A stretch of DNA of 64,000 nt, taken from the NCBI GenBank assembly GCA_963769935.1, contig CAVYNY010000009.1, positions 315,671 through 379,670 of the forward strand, written 5' to 3'. Position 1 is the stretch's first letter. Every line of letters begins with the position of its first letter. This stretch comes from an uncultured delta proteobacterium (GTDB lineage Bacteria; Desulfobacterota; Desulfobacteria; Desulfobacterales; JAFDCJ01). The notes below the pieces were generated by a model. The model made no database searches. It saw only the letters and a list, made by a program, of their open reading frames with translations, and was not told where the DNA came from. The translations under genes and the position numbers were made by a program. This document shows positions 45,294 to 64,000 of the stretch, in pieces.

Positions 45294-46130
45294 GGGGTCG
45301 CATCTCAAATATTAAGTATTTTCCTTCTGATTCGATCCTCCCGCCCCTTAAGCTTTCGATCCGCCTCAAGTTTTTTCGCGATCCGGTCATGCCGTGCCGC
45401 GATTCCAGCTCCGGAGATGTCGAACCGTCTGCCCAAGGCGACACCGGTTTCTCCCGTCAATTCCCTGCAAAGATAAATCGCCACATCCCGGGCTAAATTC
45501 CTCTTTTTCCCTTTTTGTAGGATGCTTTCTATCCCGCAACCGAATTCGTCGGAAACCGCTTCAATAAGATCATCGGGCGTTGGGCGGGGTTTCAGGATTT
45601 TCAGTTGCGGGATCTCCTTGCTGTTCGATTCCTTGCTTAAAAATGTCTTCTTCACCCAGTTTACGAAATCGACTCGCCCCAAAACAACACCGCCCACGAC
45701 GTCATCGGACGGATTCTCAATCTTTATGTTTTCGACCGACTCGACAAAATCACGGTATCCTTTTTTCGCGGTGTTCCTGTCCTCTCCGAACAGCGACAGT
45801 AACCAGTCCGTCTCCAGCCATTCCGGAGACTCAACATAGCCGCTTAAAGCCCGGTAGCTGCTCCATGGATAGTCTCTGCAATGTTCAACCATCCTCGCCC
45901 GCACCGGATTCAGATGGATATATCGCGACAGGTGCTTTAAATATTCATCCGCGTCCACCAGCACGGCTTTGAAGCGCCCTTGGAACAGATGACCGAAGCG
46001 TCTTCGTTTGCGATTGAAATACACCGAATAACCGACGTTGATCCATTTGATCGCCTGACTCAGGTTCGCATGCGGAGTTTCTATCAAAAAGTGATAATGC
46101 GTGCTCATCAGGCAAAAGGTATGGGCGATT
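45294..46130 (-). mobile_element. 5'-truncated Y1/HUH (RAYT-like) transposase with DnaA-like C-terminal HTH and its GACCCC end
   Basis: CLMSTHYHFL, GHLFQGRFKA, RYIHLNP, YPWSSY, ARDVAIYLCRE; stop followed by GATGCGACCCC|TAT. Confidence 0.85.
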
Positions 46131-46164
46131 TGGATCTTTGATTGTTTTGTCTTTAGAAATATTC

Positions 46165-46355
46165 TGCTCAGTATGTAATTTATCAAAATCTTCTTGAAAA
46201 ATTGCTTTATCTTCATTTTGCCTGATGAATTCAGCAACGCCTGATTTCTCGAGCGCCTCTTTAAGAACCGGTGTTTTTGTAAATTTGCGTTGCACTGCAC
46301 GGGCAGCACACCATACTGAGAAATTGTGTCGATGTTGGAAATGAGAATAATTCAT
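46165..46355 (-). pseudogene. 3'-truncated cassette gene (hypothetical)
   Basis: MNYSHFQHRHNFSVWCAARAVQR.. starts just after an attC, then fuses to the transposase fragment. Confidence 0.55.
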
Positions 46356-51261: not shown

Positions 51262-51690
51262 TTAATCGTATGCTGGATAATTTGTATCTGGGATGTGTGA
51301 ATGTTCTATAATTTTCCATTCACCATCGACTTTTTGCACCAAATACCAAAATTTTGTCTTCGGGTTCTTTTTTGCCGGATGTCTCATTTTCACCTCGACA
51401 ATTAGTTCCACGGCATCCTTTTCAATGGCAAGTCCGGAATATGAGGTTGTTCCGGCTCTGTCCGTATTGGTTGAACGAATAATACTGTATTCAATCCACC
51501 AATTTTCTAGACTTCCCTCAAATCCTATAGGATAAAAGCATTTAGATAAAACGTCTCGATCACCATAATTTTCGAAATACGTTTTCAGCGTGTTTTCAGG
51601 TGATGAAAAGTCCACCAAAGGCTGAGCGCTTGCAATACTAAACTGAACAATTGCAAGGCATAGCGATAATATGAATAGGTTTGCCTTCAT
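51262..51690 (-). CDS. Exported hypothetical protein, NTF2-like (cassette)
   Basis: Signal peptide from MKANLF; SPENTLKTYF and WYLVQKVDGEWKII are typical of NTF2-like small proteins. Confidence 0.65.
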   Translation of the reverse strand: MKANLFILSLCLAIVQFSIASAQPLVDFSSPENTLKTYFENYGDRDVLSKCFYPIGFEGSLENWWIEYSIIRSTNTDRAGTTSYSGLAIEKDAVELIVEVKMRHPAKKNPKTKFWYLVQKVDGEWKIIEHSHIPDTNYPAYD

Positions 51691-51699
51691 ATAATTGAA

Positions 51700-51952
51700 A
51701 CATAACGCCGCCTTCACCAGTTCATCTGGTGAAAGGCGTGGTTGGGAATTTTGGTCAATAAACTCAAACAGGTTATCGCTATAAACAAAACGAGCTGTGA
51801 AGAATGAAGGCCTACCCCCTTTTTCCAGGCCTTAGACAGATGATTGCTTAAACCGCTCTTTTTAAGTCCAAAAATATCGCTCTAAGACCAAAAAATGGCC
51901 ATATTTTTGACCTAAACCCGCATCAAATAAGCATCCAGTTTGGTCCGACCCC
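51700..51952 (-). repeat. 253-bp non-coding module, copy 1 (GGGGTCGGACC end + 48-bp attC at 51700..51747)
   Basis: Ungapped match to 59713..59965. Confidence 0.9.
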
Positions 51953-52069
51953 TAATCGACAATCCAGAAAGAAAGCCGAACGCATGATTCATGGGCACCC
52001 CTCCGGGCCGGCTCCTATTGCGGCACCTCCGCTCGGCATGGATGCAGGCGCCTTTTCGCTGTTATTTCG

Positions 52070-53422
52070 TTACTTCACCACCGTGGCGATTTTCGACCGT
52101 ACGGGAATGTTCACGGAATTCAGCCCAGGCGTCTGGCCGTGCAGGTCGAACTTGAGCTTCACCTGAGGCCGGAAGATCAGGCAGTGCGTGGAGCCGCCGA
52201 AATGGAACATGCCGAGTTGATCGCCTTTGCTCACACGTTGCCCCACTGACACAGTAATTTCGTTCGAGGAAACCTCCGCCATGCCTACGAAGAGGACCGC
52301 CATCAGGCCGATGTCCGGATTGTCCGCTTCGATGAAGATCAACGCCCTGCTCGCAACCTGGGTTATGTATCCCTGCGACTCGTTGGGCCCCGCCGGATCG
52401 AACCCCACCGACAAAGCTTCGGCATAGTACGATCCGTCGATCAGCCGGGTCTTCACGATCCTTCCGCTGACCGGACTGTGCCAGCGGTGGTAGCTCAAAG
52501 CACTGAGAAAGGCCTGATAAATCGTACCGCCTTCGAATTGCCCGATAAGGGGATCACCAGCCAGCATGTGGTAAAGTGAGTAAGGTTGTGATTTGATCCA
52601 GAATGTGTCGCTCCCCTTCACGTCCCTGGCGAGCCGGTAGGGAGCCGACTCGCAGGCGTTGGCAATGACCGCTTCGTCCATGGGGGAGGCCACCGGCCGT
52701 CGGCCTTTCCGGAACCGGCGAGTGAAAAAGTCATCCCAGGAGGTGAATCCGTAGTAGGGCTTTTCCGGATCGCACTGAAAATCCTCGACGAAGGTCGGCA
52801 TCGCTTTTTTCGCGTCCCGGCCGAACCATCCGGTTTCGGGATTGTCATTCAGGACGTATCGAGACTCTTTCGACTTTAGGAACTCGCCCCATTGATCCAG
52901 AATCTTTTTTATCTGGCTGTTCACCTTTGGATTCAGGAAAACGGTCGTCCCTGCCGGAGTCGCCATGGGCCAGTTGATGATGGCATTAATGGGAAACCCG
53001 ACCAGACCCGTCTGGTTGAATTCAGGGGCCTTGGTCATGATCTGGTTGATGAGCTGCAGCATGAGCCGGTAGTCCCTGATCTGGGGCCGGCCGGTGGGGT
53101 CTTTGCGGTACTCGGGGGTGTTGCTGGGAACCTGCTCGAACATTTGAGTAAAGAGCATGAGGAGCTCCGGGTCGCTTTCGATAAGGTTCTTGAACTCCTG
53201 AACGACAAGCGCCAGGGGCTGGGCTTTGTCATTGGTTTCCAGGACGAGGTCTTTAACCCATTGATTCAGGACTTGCTGATCGGAGGGCTGCCACTGGCCG
53301 ACCTGGTAGGGAACCGGCTTTTCGGTTGCATGAGGGCTTAACTGCTGCGCCGCCGCACAACAAAAAACTGACAGGTGCAGGAGTGCAACACTTAGTAAGA
53401 TCTTCTTCAATATACTCGACAT
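52070..53422 (-). CDS. Phosphatidylserine decarboxylase family protein with signal peptide
   Basis: DFFTR, SYHRWHSPV, GMAEVSS, FHFGGST autocleavage motif. Confidence 0.9.
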   Translation of the reverse strand: MSSILKKILLSVALLHLSVFCCAAAQQLSPHATEKPVPYQVGQWQPSDQQVLNQWVKDLVLETNDKAQPLALVVQEFKNLIESDPELLMLFTQMFEQVPSNTPEYRKDPTGRPQIRDYRLMLQLINQIMTKAPEFNQTGLVGFPINAIINWPMATPAGTTVFLNPKVNSQIKKILDQWGEFLKSKESRYVLNDNPETGWFGRDAKKAMPTFVEDFQCDPEKPYYGFTSWDDFFTRRFRKGRRPVASPMDEAVIANACESAPYRLARDVKGSDTFWIKSQPYSLYHMLAGDPLIGQFEGGTIYQAFLSALSYHRWHSPVSGRIVKTRLIDGSYYAEALSVGFDPAGPNESQGYITQVASRALIFIEADNPDIGLMAVLFVGMAEVSSNEITVSVGQRVSKGDQLGMFHFGGSTHCLIFRPQVKLKFDLHGQTPGLNSVNIPVRSKIATVVK

Positions 53423-53527
53423 ATGCCATTCTCCTTGTTGAAATTAAAGATTCGGCGGCCCGGGGGGGCCACAGTAACATATTGATGAATTTTCATGCGA
53501 AAACTGGCCGATTAAGAGGCATGGATA

Positions 53528-53758
53528 TTAGGGGACGTTCCCCGGATTCTCGGATTTGACCTCTCCCAAATGCTGCCATCTGTGCTCCTCGATGATTTGC
53601 CGTCCTCTCGTCGTAAATTCGCTTGCCGTAGAGTACGCGATGTTTAGTTTTTTCGATATCCAGACCGCGCTCATCCACAGCTCTCGCGTCCTCCAATAGC
53701 ATAATATGCTCCGAGCTTTTACCGCTCTTCGTTGCTTTCCGCCCGTTATTATTTCAGG
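53528..53758 (-). pseudogene. 3' remnant of a RAYT-like transposase with terminal repeat
   Basis: Translates GGKQRRAVKARSILCYW..ISKKLNI..SENPGNVP*, homologous to the 3' end of 54264..55301; GGGGACGTTCC at 53531. Confidence 0.85.
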
Positions 53759-53771
53759 TGCAAAATAATAA

Positions 53772-53815
53772 GGAGCGCAGCGGATGAAAATTCATAGTGC
53801 AGCGACTTGTTCGAG
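53772..53815 (-). repeat. Truncated attC (5' half)
   Basis: CTCGAAC aagtcgctgcac...ccgctgcgctcc, then abuts the transposase remnant. Confidence 0.55.
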
Positions 53816-53842
53816 TGGCCATACATTATTAGATTGCAGCAA

Positions 53843-54250
53843 TTATTTCACATCAATCGTCTCATTAATATTTAAAAAGGTTAAAACGACCTTAGCAAAT
53901 TCGATAGGTGCTTCAGTTATCAAATGGTGAGTTCCATTTTTGAATTGAACCAGCCATGCCCCAGGAATTGCGGAAGCGAGAATTTTTGAACTTTCAATTC
54001 CGACTATGTGATCCGAAGTTCCAACAATAAACATGACCTGATTAGAAATGGAAGGTAGTTGATCCATTGGGGTCTTCCAATGAATTGTAGCTAAAAGTTG
54101 CCGTATTACGGTTGGGTTGTCAGGTGTTTTACCTGTTAAAGCTTTAGCGACTTCACATCCATCTGCAGAGGTCGCGTGGATAATTGCTTTATTAAAATAG
54201 TCCGGATACTCCAGTAATAGTTCTTGGGTGATCACACTTCCCAGGAAGGG
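53843..54250 (-). pseudogene. Alpha/beta hydrolase, 5'-truncated cassette gene
   Basis: Begins at the nucleophile elbow (LGSVITQEL); GTSDHIV, GTHHL. Confidence 0.7.
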
Positions 54251-54263
54251 ATTATGAAGGGCA

Positions 54264-55301
54264 TTAAGGGACGTTCCTCGGATTTTCGGATTTGTTCTCT
54301 TCCAGGAGATTCCATCCGTGCTCTTCGACTATTTTCCGTCCTCTCATCGCGGATTCGCTCGCCGTCGAGGCTGCGATGTTCAGTCTTTTCGATATCGAAA
54401 CCGCGCTCAGCCCGAGTTCTCGGGTCCCCCAATAACATAGCACACTTCGAGCCTGTACCATTTTTCGTTGCTTTCCGCCAGTCAATAACTCCTTGAAAGT
54501 AAGACCGAATAAACCAAGCACGCGATCCACCAACCAGTCAAAGTCGTACCCCAATTCTCGGATTCTATACTTTCGATCTAAATTCTCTTGAGCAGCCTTT
54601 AATACGGTCTCGACGAAATCCCCCTGGCCAAGGATGCGTTCATCACCTTTCATCCTGCTCTCATCGTTGCGCATGGCCCTCAATGCGGACCACCCTCCGG
54701 CGCTTCTCACCAACCCACCTCCCGTCAACTCGGGCCGGCGTCCCGCCGCAACCCCCTTCTTTACAAACTCAAGATAAAGCCTGCGGGCTTCCGGGACCTT
54801 CTTTCCAAAAAGATTAAGGATATAATCAACATCCTGAAAGCGAGGCTCGTTCTTTCCCATCAAAACGCAATGTCCGCAGTAAGGGTATTTATTTAACATT
54901 TTTATATCCTTCACGATTCTGGCTCGCAAGGGATTCAAGTGAATATAGCGCACCAGTTCCAACAGGTATGGATCTTCTTGACATAATACGGACTTGTATC
55001 GATTCTGGAACAAGTGACCATGGCGACGATGACGCCGATTGAAACTCACTGCATATCCGGTCAAAAGTTTACGCATTACCGTGGCAATAGGGGCGGTACC
55101 TGTCCTCAATAATAAGTGGAGGTGATTTGTCATAAACGCCCATGCAAAACAGGGCGTCTGACTGTCCGACAGGATATCGCCAAGTCGATCTAAAAAATCA
55201 TCACGATCGGGATCATCAAAAAAAATCTTTCTTCGATTAATCCCCCTCACGATGATATGGTGCAAGGCTCCAGGAGCATCTATACGGGCTTTTCTTGGCA
55301 T
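54264..55301 (-). CDS. Y1/HUH transposase (RAYT-like) with C-terminal DnaA-like HTH
   Basis: LHHIIVRG, HUH in MTNHLHLL, GHLFQNRYKS, LVRYIHLNP, ARSVLCYWGTRELG. Confidence 0.92.
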   Translation of the reverse strand: MPRKARIDAPGALHHIIVRGINRRKIFFDDPDRDDFLDRLGDILSDSQTPCFAWAFMTNHLHLLLRTGTAPIATVMRKLLTGYAVSFNRRHRRHGHLFQNRYKSVLCQEDPYLLELVRYIHLNPLRARIVKDIKMLNKYPYCGHCVLMGKNEPRFQDVDYILNLFGKKVPEARRLYLEFVKKGVAAGRRPELTGGGLVRSAGGWSALRAMRNDESRMKGDERILGQGDFVETVLKAAQENLDRKYRIRELGYDFDWLVDRVLGLFGLTFKELLTGGKQRKMVQARSVLCYWGTRELGLSAVSISKRLNIAASTASESAMRGRKIVEEHGWNLLEENKSENPRNVP

Positions 55302-55359
55302 GCCATTTCAATAACAAATAATTCGTCTCCTGTAAACCGTAAATCCGAGGAACGTCCCC
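54267..55359 (-). mobile_element. RAYT/TIRYT-like element bounded by 23-bp inverted repeats
   Basis: (A/G)GGGACGTTCCTCGGATTT(T/A)CGG at 54267..54289 and inverted at 55337..55359 (21/23 match). Confidence 0.85.
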
Positions 55360-55497
55360 TATAGCCCTCCCCTTGAAGCCTATCAATGCGAAGCAACTAA
55401 ATCCTAGTAAAGTGCAATTAAGCCAATCCAATTTAGAACAGTCATAATATTCGGAATTAGCGTGTTTCTATTTAAAGTTACTATCTATGTCTCATAC

Positions 55498-55626
55498 TCA
55501 TAACGTGGAAGTGAGGGGCCGGGCAGGGATTGCCTAAACTCTAAATAATGACCACAACCTGCTGAAAAACAATAGTTGTAAAAATGGCACGGCTTTGCCC
55601 GTTCCCTCTCCACTGATTTGTTCTGC
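55498..55626 (-). repeat. attC site
   Basis: GCAGAAC aaatcagtggagagggaacgggc...gcccggcccctcacttccac GTTATGA. Confidence 0.88.
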
Positions 55627-55629
55627 ATC

Positions 55630-55860
55630 TCAGTGAGTCTTAATATGGTTGTTAAATTTTTCCGCCAACTCCAAAATTGAAAGTTGAAGGCCTGCTATCT
55701 TTTGAATTGCCCAAGCTTGAAAAATTTCATCCTTACGATTCTTGTCATTAGGATGCTCTTCAATATACGATTGATAATGCGCATGGAATTCATAGATTAG
55801 GTCCTCAGTTTTTGCATCAACTCTTTTTAAACTTTCCGCTAATTTATCAGCACTTGACAT
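55630..55860 (-). CDS. Small hypothetical protein, 76 aa (cassette)
   Basis: SD AAGGGAG, ATG at 55860, fills the space between two attC sites. Confidence 0.7.
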   Translation of the reverse strand: MSSADKLAESLKRVDAKTEDLIYEFHAHYQSYIEEHPNDKNRKDEIFQAWAIQKIAGLQLSILELAEKFNNHIKTH

Positions 55861-55884
55861 GTGTTCTCCCTTTAAATGTTGGTA

Positions 55885-55951
55885 GCAGAACGTAGGCTTC
55901 AGCGGGAGCGGCCGCTTTTTGGCCGCGATCCGCTGAAAGCCATGGTTCTGT
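55885..55951 (-). repeat. attC site
   Basis: ACAGAAC catggctttcagcgg...ccgctgaagcctac GTTCTGC. Confidence 0.9.
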
Positions 55952-55957
55952 GCTCTT

Positions 55958-56352
55958 TTATATCTGATATTCTTCGATAAAATTCGGCTCTCCAATCTCC
56001 TTGGTAAATGCCGATTTTGCCTTCAAATGCAATTTTTTCCCATACATGGTGAAAAGAACCAACTCCATTTTGCGATCAGTTTGAAATGGCAATTTCATCA
56101 TATTTACCGATTTATTGCCATCAATGATGAAGAATCCATAATCAATATCATTTGGCAAATCATCAGGGAACTCGATGACAGTTACCCCTAAACAAATAAG
56201 CTCAATTTTCTGAACCAGCCGGTTCCTTTGCTAATTCCGGGTGTACCTCCGCTATGGTGAACATAAGCTTCATCAAAATAAAGAATTGCCTCATCGTTGG
56301 TAACTTTAATTTCTTTTAAAGTAGAATCGTGAAATTCAATTTCTCTGTTCAT
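55958..56352 (-). CDS. Hypothetical protein, about 130 aa (cassette; frameshift near 56210)
   Basis: MNREIEFHDSTLKEIKV...GTGW then IELICLGVTVIEFPDDLPNDID...EEYQI*. Confidence 0.65.
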
Positions 56353-56361
56353 GATTTACAC

Positions 56362-56466
56362 ACAGAACGTCCTGCGATGAGCAGCGGCCCAATTTCAGAC
56401 AAATTTTGCAAGGCCTTTACGTAAAACCGCAGTCTTCACGCCGTCTGCTCCACCGACTGGTTGGGC
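56362..56466 (-). repeat. attC site
   Basis: GCCCAAC cagtcggtggagcagacggc...gccgctgctcatcgcaggac GTTCTGT. Confidence 0.9.
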
Positions 56467-56467
56467 G

Positions 56468-57892
56468 TTATTGCAATTCAAGACATTTTCGCAACCCGTA
56501 GTGAACCGAACATTTCTTTCTAACCCTAAACCTTTTTGTCGGTTCTCTATATTTGAAATCAGGAGTCGTCCTATCTGGCGAGTCAAAAATTCCAATCGCA
56601 CTAAAATCAAAGAGCTTACCCAGAATGTTATTTACAGATGTATCAGACTGAATACTCGCCTTTTGGAAGTACCTGTTTATATCTTTGGCATAAAAGGAAC
56701 TTTTTCCATGATCGCGAATAGCCTCAAGAACTGACTCTATATCAGGCACAAGCGCAGACACTTCATCGACCAGTTCATCTCGAAACCAGTCACTATATTC
56801 GGTTTCGGCAGCGATGAATGCTTGCCGATTCGCAATAGAGAGCTGCTGTTTTCGACAAACACGCTGAAGGCATTTTGTGAATTCAATAACATCTCGAGGT
56901 CTGAGGAATGTTCTAGCAAGTAACCAGGAAAAGGGCTTAACATTCCCTCTAATTTTATCTTTAGTTGTGATACGTCGCCAATAGTCCGTAGCTTCATTAG
57001 GTACCTGGTCCATTGAGGCACCAATGCGCAAGTTGATCATATTAAAAAGGGATGATGTCATAGGTGAACCATGCCCTATAGACCAGTCGATATCTAACCG
57101 CCTATCCTTGATTTTATTTCTATCAGAATACTGCAGTTTTTTATATATATCATCTCGCAAGAGCGCAACAGCTCTTATTGTCTTGTGATTTGCCTCACAA
57201 GTTGAATTAATCTGATCTAACGCCTTTAGCAAACCAATTAGTATATCGTTATAATCATCAGGCCTTGCCTCATAAATATCATCCAATTCATCGCAAAACA
57301 GAATATATTTATTTGCAAGATTTGCAGATCGTATCAGACATTCCTCTAAGCTATCAAGGTACCGCAGTAAGTCTATTTCTTCTTCTCTATCCTTAGTTTT
57401 TTTAACAACATGCGCTTCAACAACCTTTACACGGAGCTTCATACCCTTTTCAATTGTTGATGACAGGTAGTCAACTGCCTTTGCCTTAAGGTCAGGGCAA
57501 TTCAATTCTAAAAATGCAGACAGCTGTTGACTCTCAACCGGTGGGACAGACTGGTCGCGAATCACCAATTTCGACAACTCAAGAAGTAGGATATATCGCC
57601 ATACTGGAACGAACTTTGAAGCCCCAGCGAAGCGTGAATCCTGAAACTTATCGATAAGACCAAGAGGTATGTCTCTGCCGGAAATCACATCAGCTATTTG
57701 GTCATATGTATTTATTGAGGTTTTAATTATGTATGTAGATATAGCTGTTTTACCAGAGCCTTTTCTTCCAACAATCAAATGTATTTTACCGTCAATAACT
57801 TTTTTGACCTCACCCGTGTCATAAAAGTAGCGCTCTAAATTATCATACTTTGCTTCATTAGATCCAAAATCTATCACTCGTATATCGTACAT
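56468..57892 (-). CDS. P-loop ATPase (FunZ/Sll1717-like) (cassette)
   Basis: Walker A GRKGSGKT, Walker B LFCDELDD, LLRDDI, RTFLRPRD; SD AGGAGG before ATG 57892. Confidence 0.8.
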   Translation of the reverse strand: MYDIRVIDFGSNEAKYDNLERYFYDTGEVKKVIDGKIHLIVGRKGSGKTAISTYIIKTSINTYDQIADVISGRDIPLGLIDKFQDSRFAGASKFVPVWRYILLLELSKLVIRDQSVPPVESQQLSAFLELNCPDLKAKAVDYLSSTIEKGMKLRVKVVEAHVVKKTKDREEEIDLLRYLDSLEECLIRSANLANKYILFCDELDDIYEARPDDYNDILIGLLKALDQINSTCEANHKTIRAVALLRDDIYKKLQYSDRNKIKDRRLDIDWSIGHGSPMTSSLFNMINLRIGASMDQVPNEATDYWRRITTKDKIRGNVKPFSWLLARTFLRPRDVIEFTKCLQRVCRKQQLSIANRQAFIAAETEYSDWFRDELVDEVSALVPDIESVLEAIRDHGKSSFYAKDINRYFQKASIQSDTSVNNILGKLFDFSAIGIFDSPDRTTPDFKYREPTKRFRVRKKCSVHYGLRKCLELQ

Positions 57893-57923
57893 ACTGCCTC
57901 CTGAAAAAATCAAAGGGATTCAA

Positions 57924-58051
57924 GCCCAACGGGGCGTTTCACCTGCCGGCGGTGGGCTTTAACAATAAAGCTCGGATTGAAAAATCGAATACAAATCGAA
58001 TGTTGCAGGCCGCAAGATATAGCCGGTCAGAGTGCAAACGCATGGTTAGGA
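57924..58051 (-). repeat. attC site
   Basis: TCCTAAC catgcgtttgcactctgaccggc...gccggcaggtgaaacgcccc GTTGGGC. Confidence 0.9.
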
Positions 58052-58066
58052 ATTTTCTCAAACTTT

Positions 58067-58381
58067 TTATATGTTAAAGAAATTTTTTTTGATTATTCTC
58101 AGTCCACAATGGACGCATTCATTTCTAAATGGATTTAACAAACCCCAAAAACCTTGAAAGTACCTCTCACAGCGAGGGCACTTGGTAAAAGAAAAATAAA
58201 AATATAGAAAAAATCAACGAGATAGCAAAAAGAAAATATACTAACTTAACGGCAAAATAGTTATTCTCGACAAAATTTAATATAAACATAATCGGCATCA
58301 AAATAAGAAAAAGAAAAACAGGTAGACGTTTCCTTCTCCTTAATTTTTTAATGCCGATAGTAAATCAGACTCATCTGTCAT
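58067..58381 (-). CDS. 2-TM protein with C-terminal zinc ribbon (cassette; two homopolymer frameshifts)
   Basis: Reconstructed MTDESDLLSALKKLRRRKRLPVFLFLILMP..TKCPRCERYFQGFWGLLNPFRNECVHCGL; absent from the ORF track. Confidence 0.6.
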
Positions 58382-58391
58382 ATGGCGATAT

Positions 58392-58522
58392 TCCTAACGG
58401 TTGAGTTGTGGGGCCGGGAAGCAATGAATTAGTGAAATTAAAAATGGCACATAATTGGTATCAACCACGACTTTGAAAAAAGCCACGGTTTTTCCCGGAC
58501 CCACACCAGCGAATTGTTGGGC
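58392..58522 (-). repeat. attC site
   Basis: GCCCAAC aattcgctggtgtgggtccgggaa...ttcccggccccacaactcaacc GTTAGGA. Confidence 0.9.
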
Positions 58523-58530
58523 AACCCTAC

Positions 58531-59686
58531 TTACCCAGCCTTGGACGACGCTTCGTCGCCGCATATGATACCCGCTGCCTCGATCAGCTGGACCCATTCG
58601 TCGCTGACCTTTCTGGCTTCCAACATCACCATCAATCCCTGCCGTAGTCGCCTCAAAACAGGCCGGAGGTCTCGCGACATTTTCTCGATAGGCGCGATGG
58701 CATCAATCATCCCTTTAGCAGATCCGAGCCCCTCACGAGAAGCTGCAGACATGGTTCGAATTGCCTCGAAGAATTCACACACTCCCGCCTTCGCTTCGGG
58801 CTCGCGCTCGATCTCGGACGCGGCATGCTCGATTATGGTACGGAATCCCAGGTCAACTTCGTGGAGCTGTGATGCGAATTCGTTACCGAAGGATCGGATA
58901 CGCTCGACCGGGTCAGTTAGATGACGGGCAACTCCCCTAGCGAACGACCAGTCGTGCAGCAAATCCCTTACCTTGGTTCTCGCGACCCTGGATGTCCGCC
59001 GTGGCCTCCTGCATTGTCTGTCCGATCAGTTCGATATCCTTTCCAATCGCGGTGATCGTCTCGACAAGCCTCGGAAGCGCGTCTTCCGCCGCAGCAATTC
59101 GATCAATGAACCCAGGTGATTCATCCGCGCCTTCGGAACCACCCTCCTCGACTTCCAGGACACGGGCAGCGATATCGACACCTTCAACCTGTCGATTAGC
59201 CTCAACTATCCTCGCCGCTAGCCGCGCTACGGCCTTCCGATAGTTTCCCGACGAGGTCTCTTCAAACCGCAGCTCGCGCCAGTCGTCCCACTGGAACGCC
59301 TGGACAACTGCCAGTAGATCGTCCTGCGGAGATTCGTCGTGAAGGCCGGCCACATCAAGGTAGAGCAATGGGAGCACGAGCTCCTTGATTCCAAGATTTG
59401 TTGCCTTTCTGGAGAAAAACTGCAGTTCCCTACGACATTCAGGGCTCATGAAGTACCTGGGCGTCAGCACTGGTATGAAGAAAGCAACTGAAGCAAGGCT
59501 GGAGTCGATTTTGTCCTTCCAATTGTCGCCCCATTTGATCGCGTCCTGGTCCAGAAATAGTTCGAGGGCTTCACCCGTTAGCATCTCAAATTGGCCCTTT
59601 ACGTCTTTTGCCAGTCTTGAGATTCGGCCGCCTTCGGCCTCGTCATCGGCGTGGACGTAAGACCAGAATCCTTGTAAAGTCGCCAT
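58531..59686 (-). CDS. TIR-domain protein with helical C-terminal domain (cassette; frameshift near 58945)
   Basis: GFWSYVHAD, LFLD..IKWGDNW, FFIPVLTPRYFMSPECRRE; two collinear ORFs fill one cassette. Confidence 0.85.
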
Positions 59687-59712
59687 AGAACTTCTCTGAC
59701 TTTCGTGGGTCA

Positions 59713-59965
59713 GCCCAACGCCGCCTTCACCAGTTCATCTGGTGAAAGGCGTGGTTGGGAATTTTGGTCAATAAGCTCAAGCAGGTTATCGCTATAAACA
59801 AAACAAGCTGTGAAGGATGAAGACCTACCCCCTTTTTCCAGGCTTTAGCCAGATGATTACTTAAACAGCTATTTTTAAGTCCAAAAACATCGCTCTAAGA
59901 CCAAAAAACGGCCCTATTTTTGACCTAAACCCTCATCAAATAAGAATAGAGCTTGGTCCGACCCC
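59713..59965 (-). repeat. 253-bp non-coding module, copy 2 (GGGGTCGGACC end + 48-bp attC at 59713..59760)
   Basis: Ungapped match to 51700..51952. Confidence 0.9.
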
Positions 59966-60119
59966 GAATCACACTGCTGGTAAAGACCGAACATTTCCGA
60001 CGATCTGAGCAAACAACTGGTCACCACTGATTGCGGATCCTTGAGACTCTGTTTGTACAAGAGCAATTCTCGAACCACAGCGGACTATTTGATCCAACAC
60101 TGTCTAAGCGCCTAACGGA

Positions 60120-61865
60120 CTATAGGTTCAGAGCTTCTATGTTGTCGACTCCGAACCAGTCGCCGACCGTCTGCATGGCCGCGGCGGAAAGCTCTTGTGT
60201 AAAGAGAACGGCCAGACGCCTCTTCGGCCTCGAACAGGTGACGTAGAAGAGATTCCGATTGCGCTCGAAGGCGGCTTCTTTGTTGGCAGGAATCTGTGCG
60301 CCCTGTCCCGCCAATTCGAGCATCTCGTTGAAGTTATACCTGTTCCAGCCTCTGCCGACGACGACGAGGACGTTCTCGAACTCGGCACCCTTGACGCCGT
60401 GCTTCGTCTCGAACGGAGAATGGCCCGACAGGTAGCGGCACAGGGCGACGATTTCCCGGTACGAAACGGCCCGGAGGTCGCCGAGCTCCTTCAGCGCTCG
60501 CGGCATGTCCTCGCCGGCCTCCGGGTCGAACTCCCGCAATTCGCGTTCGCGCCGCTCGACGGCATCGGGAACCCTCGGCCGGCGCACCGCAAGCAAATGA
60601 TCCACCACGTCGCCGACCGTCGCGCTGGCTCTCAACTCGATGAGCCTGTCCATGGCCTCGGACCATTTCTTCTTGTCGGCCTGAGCGCGGATCGCCGGCA
60701 CGTTGGAACCGAGTGCACGGAACATCTCCCCGTACTTCTTGGAGAGGTAAGCCTCACAGGCCGGCTCCAGAGCGTCGGCGAAATAGGCGATATGCGGATG
60801 CTCCTTGTTCGTGAAGGACTCGTTGAACGCGAAGACCGTCGGAATGCTGGGATATCCCTGCTTGCCGGCAAGCACGCGATGGGTGAGCATCAAGATCTTG
60901 GTGGTCTCGGGAGACAGATCCCAGCCGTCTTCGCCAAGACGATCGAGGACGGTCTGAAGCGCCCGGTCTGCGGCTTCGGTAGGAAGGTCTCCGCCCCAGT
61001 GGCCGCCGGTCTGACGGGCACCTGTCCAAGTGTTCGTATGAAAGATGCGGATGCTGCCCTGTTCGTTCGGATCGACGACGAATTGAGGCAGTTCGGGCCT
61101 CATGCGGTTCAGGCATTCGACGACCGTCGAAACCGACCGGAAGTTCGCCTGCTTGCCGACGACCGTCAGGCTTGGATGCTCGATCTTTCCGCATCCGTCG
61201 CCATAGATTTTCTGCCAGTGGTCGCCGAAGAAGCCGAATTGTGGCGATCCCTCCTGTCCGAGGAAGTGGGTCTTGATCGAGTCGATCCAGTCGGCGTTGG
61301 TGTCCTGATACTCGTCGATCAATATGATCGGGTACTTGTCCGCCAGGATGCGCCTGAACTTGGCGTTGTCCATGAGAGCGATAGTCAGGATAAGAACGTC
61401 GTCGTGATGGATGGAGACACGACGGTCGTTGATGCTTCTGTGCCCAAGCTCGTACTCGACGGCACGCTCGCCGAGGTCGCCGACTTCGGCGATCCTGTCG
61501 GGCCAGTGCTGGAGCTGCGGCAGCCGTTCCCGGAGTTGTCTTTGGAAACCGCTGATGAGCGACCAGCAGAATGCGTGGATCGTATTGCAATAGATGAGCG
61601 GGCTCCGGTCGGTCCGGGCGTCGATCTCGTCCTTCGCCACGTTGGTGAAGGTGATGCACGCGATCTTCTGATGCCGCTGCGGCAGAATGTGCTCGTAGCG
61701 GTCCATGAGGAAGTGGAGCGCCTTGACGAGCGTGTAGGTCTTTCCGGCGCCAGCGCCGGCTTCGACGAGGAAGCTCTCTTTGCGCTCAAGGCAGCCATAC
61801 ACCTCAGCGAGGGCTTTTTGGCTGGCCTCTTCGGCCGGGTTCAATTGTTCCACGACCTCAGCCAT
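60120..61865 (-). CDS. gajB: UvrD-like helicase, Gabija GajB
   Basis: AGAGAGKT, ITFTN, LIDEYQD, FGDHWQKIY, NFRS, TKHGVKGAEF, FYVTCSR; start overlaps the gajA stop. Confidence 0.85.
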   Translation of the reverse strand: MAEVVEQLNPAEEASQKALAEVYGCLERKESFLVEAGAGAGKTYTLVKALHFLMDRYEHILPQRHQKIACITFTNVAKDEIDARTDRSPLIYCNTIHAFCWSLISGFQRQLRERLPQLQHWPDRIAEVGDLGERAVEYELGHRSINDRRVSIHHDDVLILTIALMDNAKFRRILADKYPIILIDEYQDTNADWIDSIKTHFLGQEGSPQFGFFGDHWQKIYGDGCGKIEHPSLTVVGKQANFRSVSTVVECLNRMRPELPQFVVDPNEQGSIRIFHTNTWTGARQTGGHWGGDLPTEAADRALQTVLDRLGEDGWDLSPETTKILMLTHRVLAGKQGYPSIPTVFAFNESFTNKEHPHIAYFADALEPACEAYLSKKYGEMFRALGSNVPAIRAQADKKKWSEAMDRLIELRASATVGDVVDHLLAVRRPRVPDAVERRERELREFDPEAGEDMPRALKELGDLRAVSYREIVALCRYLSGHSPFETKHGVKGAEFENVLVVVGRGWNRYNFNEMLELAGQGAQIPANKEAAFERNRNLFYVTCSRPKRRLAVLFTQELSAAAMQTVGDWFGVDNIEALNL

Positions 61866-63910
61866 CTTGAGCCACCGCTGCTTCGGGGGCGTCGGCGGCG
61901 GCTGCCTGGACGATCGCCGCGTCCGCATCAGGAATGCCGCCAGCCGCCAGCCATCTCAATCCGTCGAGGATATAGCCGGGCGCGGTCCAGCCAGTTTCGT
62001 CGATAGCGTATTTGAGGGCGAATTGGGACTTCTTGATCTTGTCGAGCTTGTCCCATGCGCACTGGGCCTGCTCTTCGGGCGTGGCGCCTTCGATACCGAA
62101 CATCGCCGGATTCGCCAGCATGAACGCGTCCTCGAAGGTGCGGCCGCACGGACCGCCTTCGGCCTCGGGCCGTTGAAAGGCGATGCGCCGGAGTTCCTTG
62201 ACCTTGGCCGCGTCGTCTTTCGCCAGAAGGGCCTCGGGCGAGCAGTCGCCATCTCCGAACCAAGTGTTGAGACAGGCGTTGCTCGTGGCCGTTCCCTCAT
62301 GCACCGGACAGGCGGCCCCGCCGGCGGCAGACGACGGAGTCGAGGTCCGTGATGATGAGGGTCCGCAGCTCCAGAAAGTCGAGAAGGTCGAAGAATATGT
62401 GCGCGTAGGCGCCACCGACTTCCATGGTCGTCATGTACTGGCTGGACAGCTTGGGCGCGTCGGGCTCGGCCTCCTCCAGCTTTTCGATGATCACTGGCAA
62501 CAGCAGGCGCTCGCTGGTGCCTTCGATCAATATGGCCTTGTCGGCGAAGAACAGGTCGCAGCGAGTCAGCGTCAGATACTGGTGGAGAAACCTTCTGTGG
62601 TCTTCCGGCGTTTCGCGCAGCCCCTCGCGCAGGTCCTTGATCTCGGTCTGGCGAACGCCACCGGCGGCGGTCGGGAGGAAATACCGGATCGCCTCGAAGC
62701 CGGCGGCGTTGGCGACGTGGGAGGAGTGCGTCGATACGATGAACTGGACCGGCCAGGGCAAGGGAGCGCCCTCCTGGTCGCTGAGCTGTTGAGCGATCTT
62801 CGATACCTGGCGGATGAACACTTCCTGCATCTGGGGATGCAGGTGGGCCTCGGGTTCCTCGATGAACACGAGGTGGACGCCGGGAGCGTTCGGTTCCGCG
62901 CGGAAAGTGCGATAGAAACTGACGATCCGAAGCAGGATGAAGATGAGATTGCGTATTCCGAGGCCGGTATAGGATTCCGGCAGCAGGATTCCGTGATGGC
63001 CCGCGTATCTCACCTTGGTGTGGCGTGAAAGGAGGCGTTCCACGTCGAGCGTCGTCTCCGTCTCCAACTCGGAACCGTCGAGGCCGGGATAGCCGAACGT
63101 GCGCAAGGTCGGCATCAGCTTCCGCAGCTCGTCTTTGAAGCCGCCCTCGATCGTTTGCTGAATGTCGCGCACGGCCTCTTGCAAAGCTTGAGCGATGGCT
63201 TGGTCGGCCTGATCGGCGGTCGGCGATTTCGCGGCGGTGAAGAGACCTTCCAGGATTTTGGCCAGAACGTCGGTGTCTCTCGACGTGTCGTCGTCGAGCC
63301 CGCGTTGGGCGTTCACGAAACCCGTCTTCAGGAGTGACCGGAGCGCACTCACGGTCATCTGCTTGCGGTTGGTAGCGTCGTTAGGGTCTTCGGCCCATAT
63401 GCTGGCGACGAAGAGAGCGGGCACGCGCTCGCGGAGCAGTTGGAAGAAGGCGAGCCGGTCCTCGTCGGTCAGGTCGCCGGCCGGCTGATCGGCGAACAGC
63501 GACTCGATGGCGCCGTCGCGCAACTCGTAGCGCGCCACGACGAGCGCTTCGTTGCAGTCGGGGTCGAGGTCGATGACGAAGTCGCTGAGAGGGCCAAGCT
63601 CGGGCTGTTCGGGATCGTATCGGAACAGGAGTCGCAGCTCGATGCTCGGAATCAGAGCGCGAACCTCATCGTCTTGCCGGCCCGCGTTCTTGGCCTTGAG
63701 CGCTTCGCAAAAGCCGTCATATGAGGCGTTCGAGAAGTCTTCGATCTGGAATTTCGGGTTCTGATCTACGAGAAACCGGCGGATGGCCTCCGAAAGCGAT
63801 GTCTTGCCGCTGTTGTTGCGGCCGACGACGAGAGTCGTTTGGTCTTCCAGCACCAACTCCACGTCGGCCAGAAGCCGGAAGTTTCTGACCGTGACTTTGT
63901 GGATGTGCAT
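61858..63910 (-). CDS. gajA: OLD-family ABC-ATPase/TOPRIM nuclease, Gabija GajA (frameshift near 62330)
   Basis: GRNNSGKT, IEEPEAHLHP, STHSSH, LFFADKAILIEG..E, ITDLD. Confidence 0.88.
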
Positions 63911-63942: not shown

Positions 63943-64000
63943 ACATAACGTTTCCGGGTGAGGTGCGGCCCTCGATCCATAGCGAACCAAAAGCCTATAC
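63943..64000 (-). repeat. attC site, 3' part (continues beyond window)
   Basis: ..gggccgcacctcacccggaaac GTTATGT, 32 bp before the gajA ATG; same style as other attC 3' arms. Confidence 0.7.

Follow-up and report, generated by a model that had tools for sequence, protein, structure and literature searches.

A gene-less repeat joining TIRYT transposase ends to a 48-nt attC site: a candidate portable recombination site in a desulfobacterial cassette array

How integron cassettes acquire their attC recombination sites is largely unknown (PMC5371416; articles are cited here from the parts of their text available to us). The question is raised by a 253-bp repeat (the module) that occurs twice in a 64,000-nt stretch of DNA from an uncultured delta proteobacterium of the Desulfobacterales (contig CAVYNY010000009.1, positions 315,671 to 379,670; assembly GCA_963769935.1). 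Coordinates refer to this stretch (the window) unless a contig or locus is named; C, G and L labels denote contigs, relatives' genomes and loci, with G000 the present genome. A sequence-only reading had proposed that the module joins the terminus of a Y1 transposase element to an attC and grafts this site onto captured genes. What is new at this locus is a combination of two known parts, an attC and an end of TIRYT elements (Y1 transposase genes framed by terminal inverted repeats, TIRs), and this combination is real and recurrent. We consider it fairly probable that the module is a gene-less fusion of two TIRYT ends with a 48-nt attC that serves as a portable attC, its outer end rejoined by a TIRYT transposase acting in trans and its inner end recombined by an integron integrase (IntI).

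The two window copies align without gaps over 253 bp and differ at 21 positions: 18 in positions 1–205 (numbered along the minus strand), none in 206–249, and three (250, 251 and 253) past the G↓TT crossover. The sequence-only reading had described this repeat correctly, including its lack of genes; the longest open reading frame (ORF) inside it has 24 codons, which makes the module gene-less and non-autonomous. Its parts are nested, with a TIR of about 109 nt at the outer edge (TIR-A, positions 1–109), a second TIR of 24 nt (TIR-B, 134–157) and an attC of 48 nt (206–253). No closing TIR lies within the 253 bp and no inverted end of the same family was found downstream of copy 1; in G008 such an end lies 3.1 kb downstream of the module. 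Both copies sit within a minus-strand cassette array in which our detector finds 9 to 12 attC sites. Over the window's first 40 kb the same detector finds no site, and no attC arm scores above background when the 200 nt preceding each copy on its upstream side are scanned. No RNA family was found in the window, and the module had no match in plasmids.

As a single strand, the attC forms a hairpin of R/L-box type in which R'' pairs with R' and L'' with L' and one base is extrahelical (z −4.7 and −6.8). It resembles known attC sites, including those of attC clusters that have no integron-integrase (CALINs) and single attC sites without one (SALINs), in its R''/L''/L'/R' hairpin, in the exchange of flanks at G↓TT, in the cassette-like ORF start downstream and in the many solitary sites (PMC5371416; 10.1101/2022.09.11.507474). 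It differs from them in measuring 48 nt from R'' to R', compared with a published range of 56/57–141 bp (PMC5371416), in its single extrahelical base, and in following a transposase end instead of a gene; if active, this mini attC would be shorter than the published range. Across 22 variants, 94.5% of cells are paired and an A-T/C-G switch occurs in 8, with many columns fixed by the search pattern. Exchange of flanks is seen at L030 and L033, which have 437 nt upstream of the mini attC in common; beyond those 437 nt their DNA differs, as do the genes that follow G↓TT. At L035 and L040 the mini attC stands directly behind a toxin-antitoxin gene, like a normal cassette site.

Related sites occur in other settings. 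At C11:200441 (−) of G000, the broken attC of the preceding gene has been joined to a mini attC that comes with about 60 nt of module-like sequence. An apparent ORF-less cassette in the window (57927–58393) has a 128-nt attC at its end; the ends of this attC resemble the mini attC, of which it is possibly the long parent form. Six viral contigs (L192–L197) match the mini-attC core pattern, with an attC-like site in at least L196.

Both TIRs have counterparts at transposase genes. TIR-A reads GGGGTCGG, one mismatch from the TIRYT consensus GGGG[AT][CG]A[CG], and is a dispersed repeat present as singlets and head-to-head doublets (for example, doublets at L007 and L009). The end GGGTCGGACCA stands on both sides of at least 4 of 38 MARAKRH-class Y1 transposase loci, two of them with unbroken frames, and in L114, L117, L121 and L135 the 11–12-nt TIR-A end flanks MARAKRH-class genes on both sides. 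A cognate Y1 transposase with the same end, which the sequence-only reading had listed as support, thus exists in autonomous MARAKRH-class genes. That reading had also assigned the module's end to the RAYT-like (REP-associated tyrosine transposase-like) elements of the window; this did not hold, as their ends differ (GGGGACGTTCC and GGGGTCGCATC) and the matching family lies elsewhere. Each end of a MARAKRH-class element is an imperfect repeat of about 110 nt, so left and right are not distinguishable for TIR-A, which is closer to right ends in 13 of 22 comparisons. C35 of the present genome carries an intact relative, with two mismatches in the 12-nt end and a protein in which the HUH motif and the YIDLN tyrosine are seen (NF047646, 79.1 bits for a cut-off of 80).

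The TIR-B family fits the same consensus, the module's own TIR-B being degenerate. Its ends stand ahead of Y1 genes in five loci (L087, L169, L172, L173 and L178) and bear a TTGACA oriented toward the downstream ORF. TIR-B together with a mini attC is found without TIR-A at L031 and L083, and in degenerate form at L047; thus, TIR-A is likely a later addition. In the present genome, Y1 genes and TIRs are concentrated near arrays: for 7 of the 11 genes an attC is no more than 2.1 kb away, and 24 of 68 short TIR-pattern matches fall within 5 kb of an attC, a zone that makes up 2.6% of the genome. A GG(A/G)ATAT-like sequence lies outside 21 of 31 GGGGAC-type ends, as would be expected from sequence-guided joining, with which it fits without proving it.

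Other features of these ends were recorded. Short tandem duplications span the GGGG boundary of TIRYT ends at L109, L111, L112, L057, L067 and C20 of G000; they would be compatible with, though no proof of, single-strand cutting and rejoining by TIRYT enzymes. A TTCTT(G/C)ACA motif inside TIR-B (51796–51805; L162–L191) resembles the DnaA box consensus (PMC6006769) and is possibly a binding site, and a Bac_DnaA_C domain is present in some TIRYTs (45305–46309). An identification with REP/REPIN (repetitive extragenic palindromes carrying a GTAG-tagged palindrome) was rejected on that criterion; folding of the 109-nt end is weak (z −2.1 and −0.7).

Six full copies of the module were found: three in the present genome (the third at C20:223555–223796), one in the relative G008 and two on metagenome contigs (L028 and L029). 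They are 90–92% identical with unrelated flanks, are most conserved in the 13-nt TIR core (0.03 versus 0.12 in TIR-A positions 14–109), and all diverge beyond the crossover. The sequence-only reading had listed further copies with unrelated upstream genes as support and had placed the 3' boundary at G↓TT, where it is indeed found; copies running into one conserved upstream cassette, which it named as an observation that would undo its proposal, were not seen. G008 is the sole other genome with a full copy among the 61 searched, the remaining matches covering positions 1 to about 110 only, or the attC only, and no additional full copy appeared among 401 genomes of the class when two candidates per genome were scored. 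In four public sequencing runs (four studies), contigs depart from the module mostly at 51701–51706 and at 51952 or 51957, among the ends listed; lone contigs depart at 51690 and 51698, and others inside the module at 51736–51874. One run contig linking 55362 to 59808, of which one side measures 29 letters, was set aside. GAT-N-N precedes the TIR in 3 of the 6 module copies versus 10 of 115 other ends, counts too few to separate target preference from an inherited flank. The TIR of the G008 copy is interrupted by a group II intron remnant (RF02005). Two genomes have such remnants within or next to ends of the TIR-A type (L002:770–1500 and L047:1430–1545), which suggests that these ends are targets of group II introns.

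Fusion of a TIR to an attC is recurrent. Species genomes searched by no criterion other than the attC pattern gave 26 loci, mostly from Desulfobacterota and 25 after duplicate removal; dropping 3 sites without the R'' AAC left 22, one being a full module already counted. We compared these with a TIR-B profile built from 34 ends chosen without regard to attC (threshold, 99% of background). For 12 of the 22 mini-attCs a match lies upstream on the same strand at a distance of up to 130 nt, for two it is on the other strand, and for none is it downstream; 3 of 58 ordinary attCs have one within 250 nt. An ATG-initiated ORF follows the crossover within 100 nt at 14 of the 22, versus 7 of 29 control TIR-B ends chosen without regard to attC, and at 7 of the 12 attCs of the window array. 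Related TIR+mini-attC units mostly lie behind ordinary chromosomal DNA, without an upstream attC and with a cassette-like ORF downstream. Among eight TIR-B units with 3 kb of upstream DNA, one has an upstream attC at the strict threshold, and the loose threshold adds one weak candidate; among the genes that precede other units are pfkB, a tRNA synthetase gene in divergent orientation, an ABC permease gene and a methylase gene in reverse orientation. A second TIR+attC family of about 170 bp, independent of the 253-bp module, consists of the first 25 nt of the intact TIRYT on C15 (C15:145426), 16 nt, and a 128-nt attC; it has five copies in the present genome (one truncated) and one in G022. L047 and L184 hold more neighbouring pairs of TIR and attC. 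General overwriting of attC left arms was considered and rejected, only G022 among 11 junctions being plausible, at the 95th background percentile.

A route to such units can be proposed from what is known of the two enzyme systems. TIRYT elements would settle within cassette arrays, an internal deletion would drop the transposase gene and place a left-facing end beside an attC, and TIR-A would have been added outside TIR-B afterwards. Single-strand cleavage and transfer by a TIRYT at the GGGG, or a few bases outside it, would then join the unit to new DNA, often TIRYT remains, a cut-and-rejoin step proposed by analogy with IS200/IS605 and TnpA-REP chemistry (PMC8266576). At G↓TT, IntI would insert or swap cassettes as in other integrons, so that the unit would be mainly a landing site that starts or re-caps arrays. 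Where a unit landed downstream of an existing attC, the DNA between them, here a phosphatidylserine-decarboxylase-family (PSD) gene, would formally become a cassette as a by-product. Most likely, portable attC units seed or re-cap arrays and capture is such a by-product; dedicated gene capture is possible. We advance more tentatively, and regard as rather unlikely, the broader idea that TIRYT delivery of an attC behind an ordinary gene both founds a downstream array and lets IntI excise the upstream gene, a two-enzyme, DNA-only cassette genesis that would have arisen repeatedly in sulfate-reducer relatives. Excision between attC and nearby genomic sites has been observed (10.1101/2022.09.11.507474); in principle, DNA upstream of a delivered attC could therefore be excised.

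Several observations weigh against a portable attC. All integron-integrase matches in the present genome are fragments below the family cut-off, although 100 of the order's 201 genomes have a full IntI; two of the six copies have a damaged R', and cleavage of its own TIR by a TIRYT is not reported in the available parts of PMC3733652 and PMC6006769. An attC lies inside about 1–3 of the 34 TIR-B ends chosen without regard to attC, so most ends are unfused. The detector recovers 9 of about 14 array sites at the strict threshold, and absent upstream attCs may therefore be misses; related genomes, moreover, are not independent samples. No empty site proving a new insertion was found. The sharp start at GGGGTC claimed by the sequence-only reading holds between the two window copies, but copy 2 and the C20 copy have 10 nt in common outside the TIR and run contigs continue 0–8 nt past it; the 5' edge is thus at GGGGTC or within about 12 nt of it, and not always exactly there. 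Five nucleotides outside the TIR are common to four run contigs, and such common bases could be an inherited flank and not a choice of target.

The proposal that the module is a dedicated attC donor, with TIRYT grafting it onto the 3' end of ordinary genes and IntI excising them as new cassettes, draws on the PSD gene. This gene is intact, is richer in G+C than the neighbouring cassette (56% versus 39%), and lies between two TIR-A-family ends (at 53462 and 51952) that face away from it; its closest homologues among 201 genomes (4 of 4) have no convincing attC nearby, with one candidate scoring 18. The sole close Gabija homologue among 301 genomes (74%) is located outside an array, the end-passenger-end arrangement recurs at C20 (VapBC) and in G008 (a dehydrogenase), L045 has a 1.3-kb two-ORF segment bracketed by two units, and IntI excision between an attC and nearby genomic sites is on record (10.1101/2022.09.11.507474). 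To this extent gene capture, as originally suggested, retains support, but a dedicated role does not. Gabija begins as a normal cassette: gajA starts about 40 nt past a strong attC right arm, which scores 18.6 where the 99% background stands at 11.9, and no TIR intervenes, so Gabija resembles a cassette with a replaced 3' end. Of the six copies, 3 (C20, G008 and L028) have TIRYT debris as their upstream neighbour, and for 1 the upstream sequence is too short for a judgement. The PSD gene is present as the passenger of copy 1, as the sequence-only reading said, but it shares the segment of about 3.8 kb between this copy and the previous attC with a complete TIRYT element, a fragment of a gene and remnants of TIRs. 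Recombination of long cassettes is poor (10.1101/2024.07.02.601686), and the bracketed segments have lengths of 3.8 and 4.2 kb. The same passenger with its module was found at no second position in 23 genomes of the genus or the four runs; runs X1 and X2 contain pieces of the PSD gene, and none among the pieces listed bridges it to the module. The sequences that follow the PSD gene and gajB gave no hidden attC, with z values of folding near 0 and arm scores at background. We judge a dedicated donor unlikely.

Passive debris is another reading, in which an ORF-less cassette remnant is copied by IntI alone and its 5' edge at the TIR arises from deletions or homologous exchanges between TIR copies. 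TIR copies are indeed numerous in arrays, some module copies have bases outside the TIR in common, single run contigs break within the module, and one family-C copy begins 79 nt past an attC right arm, resembling an ORF-less cassette. Yet at least three TIR families gave fusions, each time with the TIR interior toward the attC, lone units stand behind housekeeping genes (e.g., pfkB, the tRNA synthetase and the ABC permease), and an attC right arm was found within 200 nt upstream in 0 of 5 full copies tested, which makes this account quite unlikely. A promoter cassette or attI substitute, in which the left end of the TIR supplies a TTGACA transposase promoter to downstream genes and spreads by selection for expression, is very improbable. 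TIR-B ends do carry TTGACA facing the downstream ORF and promoter-bearing ORF-less cassettes are known (PMC8876359), but the module has TTCACA instead and no sigma-70 promoter was found in it. An attI origin of its middle was rejected, because similarity to native attI regions at 30 intI loci stays within the range of shuffled controls.

Mobile elements associated with attC sites are known, among them IS1111-attC elements and the introns of the intron model of cassette formation, and effects on cassettes have been proposed for them. One-ended transposition of ISCR/IS91-like elements beside class 1 integrons uses Y2 rolling-circle enzymes encoded in cis. The module is like the latter, by analogy, in having an HUH enzyme end that would move adjoining DNA with one cognate end, and unlike them in its proposed supply of a Y1 TIRYT in trans; ISCR1 promoters are mentioned in PMC8876359. 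Group IIC-attC introns are likewise mobile elements tied to attC and proposed to affect cassette formation or expression (PMC3001079; PMC8876359), but they and IS1111-attC elements insert into attC, whereas the module's transposase end carries an intact attC along. ORF-less (promoter) cassettes (PMC8876359; PMC11014356) also lack an ORF, end in an attC and lie within arrays; the module differs in that its 5' boundary is a TIR rather than a G↓TT crossover and in having no detected promoter. TIRtrons and TIRYTs (Di Nocera et al. 2013, PMC3733652; TnpA-Y1 subclass 2.1 of Quentin et al. 2018, PMC6006769) consist of a Y1 HUH gene between terminal inverted repeats of the GGGG(A/T) type, repeats that also occur as singlets and dimers. 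Unlike them, the module lacks both a transposase and a closing TIR, combines two nested ends of different families and has an attC in its interior. The available parts of both articles make no link between TIRs and integrons, and 'integron' is absent from that of PMC6006769. We found no description of TIR-attC fusions in the literature (mostly open-access articles, main texts only; the TIR tables in the supplements of PMC3733652 and PMC6006769 could list the end family).

If the portable attC reading is right, TIR-attC units are a possible source of solitary attC sites and of arrays without an integrase, and they suggest a first candidate activity for TIRYT enzymes. They are also defined substrates for a direct test, having TIRs with cognate transposase genes and attCs with natural flank variants; the second (C15) family is a cleaner substrate than the 253-bp module. 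Features are collected in Table 1.

Table 1. Features of the window and sites of the second TIR+attC family.
Feature	Position	Strand
Module copy 1 (TIR-A + TIR-B + 48-nt attC)	51700..51952	-
TIR-A copy 1, ~109-nt terminal repeat, MARAKRH-class TIRYT family	51844..51952	-
TIR-B copy 1, degenerate left end, second TIRYT family	51796..51819	-
48-nt mini attC copy 1, crossover G at 51706	51700..51747	-
Module copy 2	59713..59965	-
TIR-A copy 2	59857..59965	-
TIR-B copy 2	59809..59832	-
48-nt mini attC copy 2, crossover G at 59719	59713..59760	-
PSD gene, intact, between two outward-facing TIR-A-family ends	52070..53422	-
Degenerate, internally deleted TIR-A-family right end, terminus toward PSD gene	53462..53530	+
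3' remnant and right end of GGGGACGTTCC-type TIRYT element	53531..53740	-
Complete TIRYT element, GGGGACGTTCC ends, 345-aa Y1 gene at 54264-55301, not TIR-A cognate	54262..55359	-
129-nt attC, nearest attC upstream of copy 1, brackets ~3.8-kb composite segment	55498..55626	-
154-nt spacer between gajB and module, lower GC (47%), no homologue, no attC arm found	59966..60119	-
Gabija gajA (split near aa 526) and gajB	60120..63910	-
attC right arm truncated at the contig edge; crossover G, 63949; gajA start ~40 nt further on	63943..64000	-
Second-family sites in G000	C17:223278, C13:571943, C10:16248	+
Second-family sites in G000	C38:121320, C11:196484	-
Second-family site	L238

The contig ends 50 nt past the last attC arm. 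Two genes of the window are split, gajA (61858–63910) and the gene of a TIR-domain protein (58531–59686), through either frameshifts or assembly errors.

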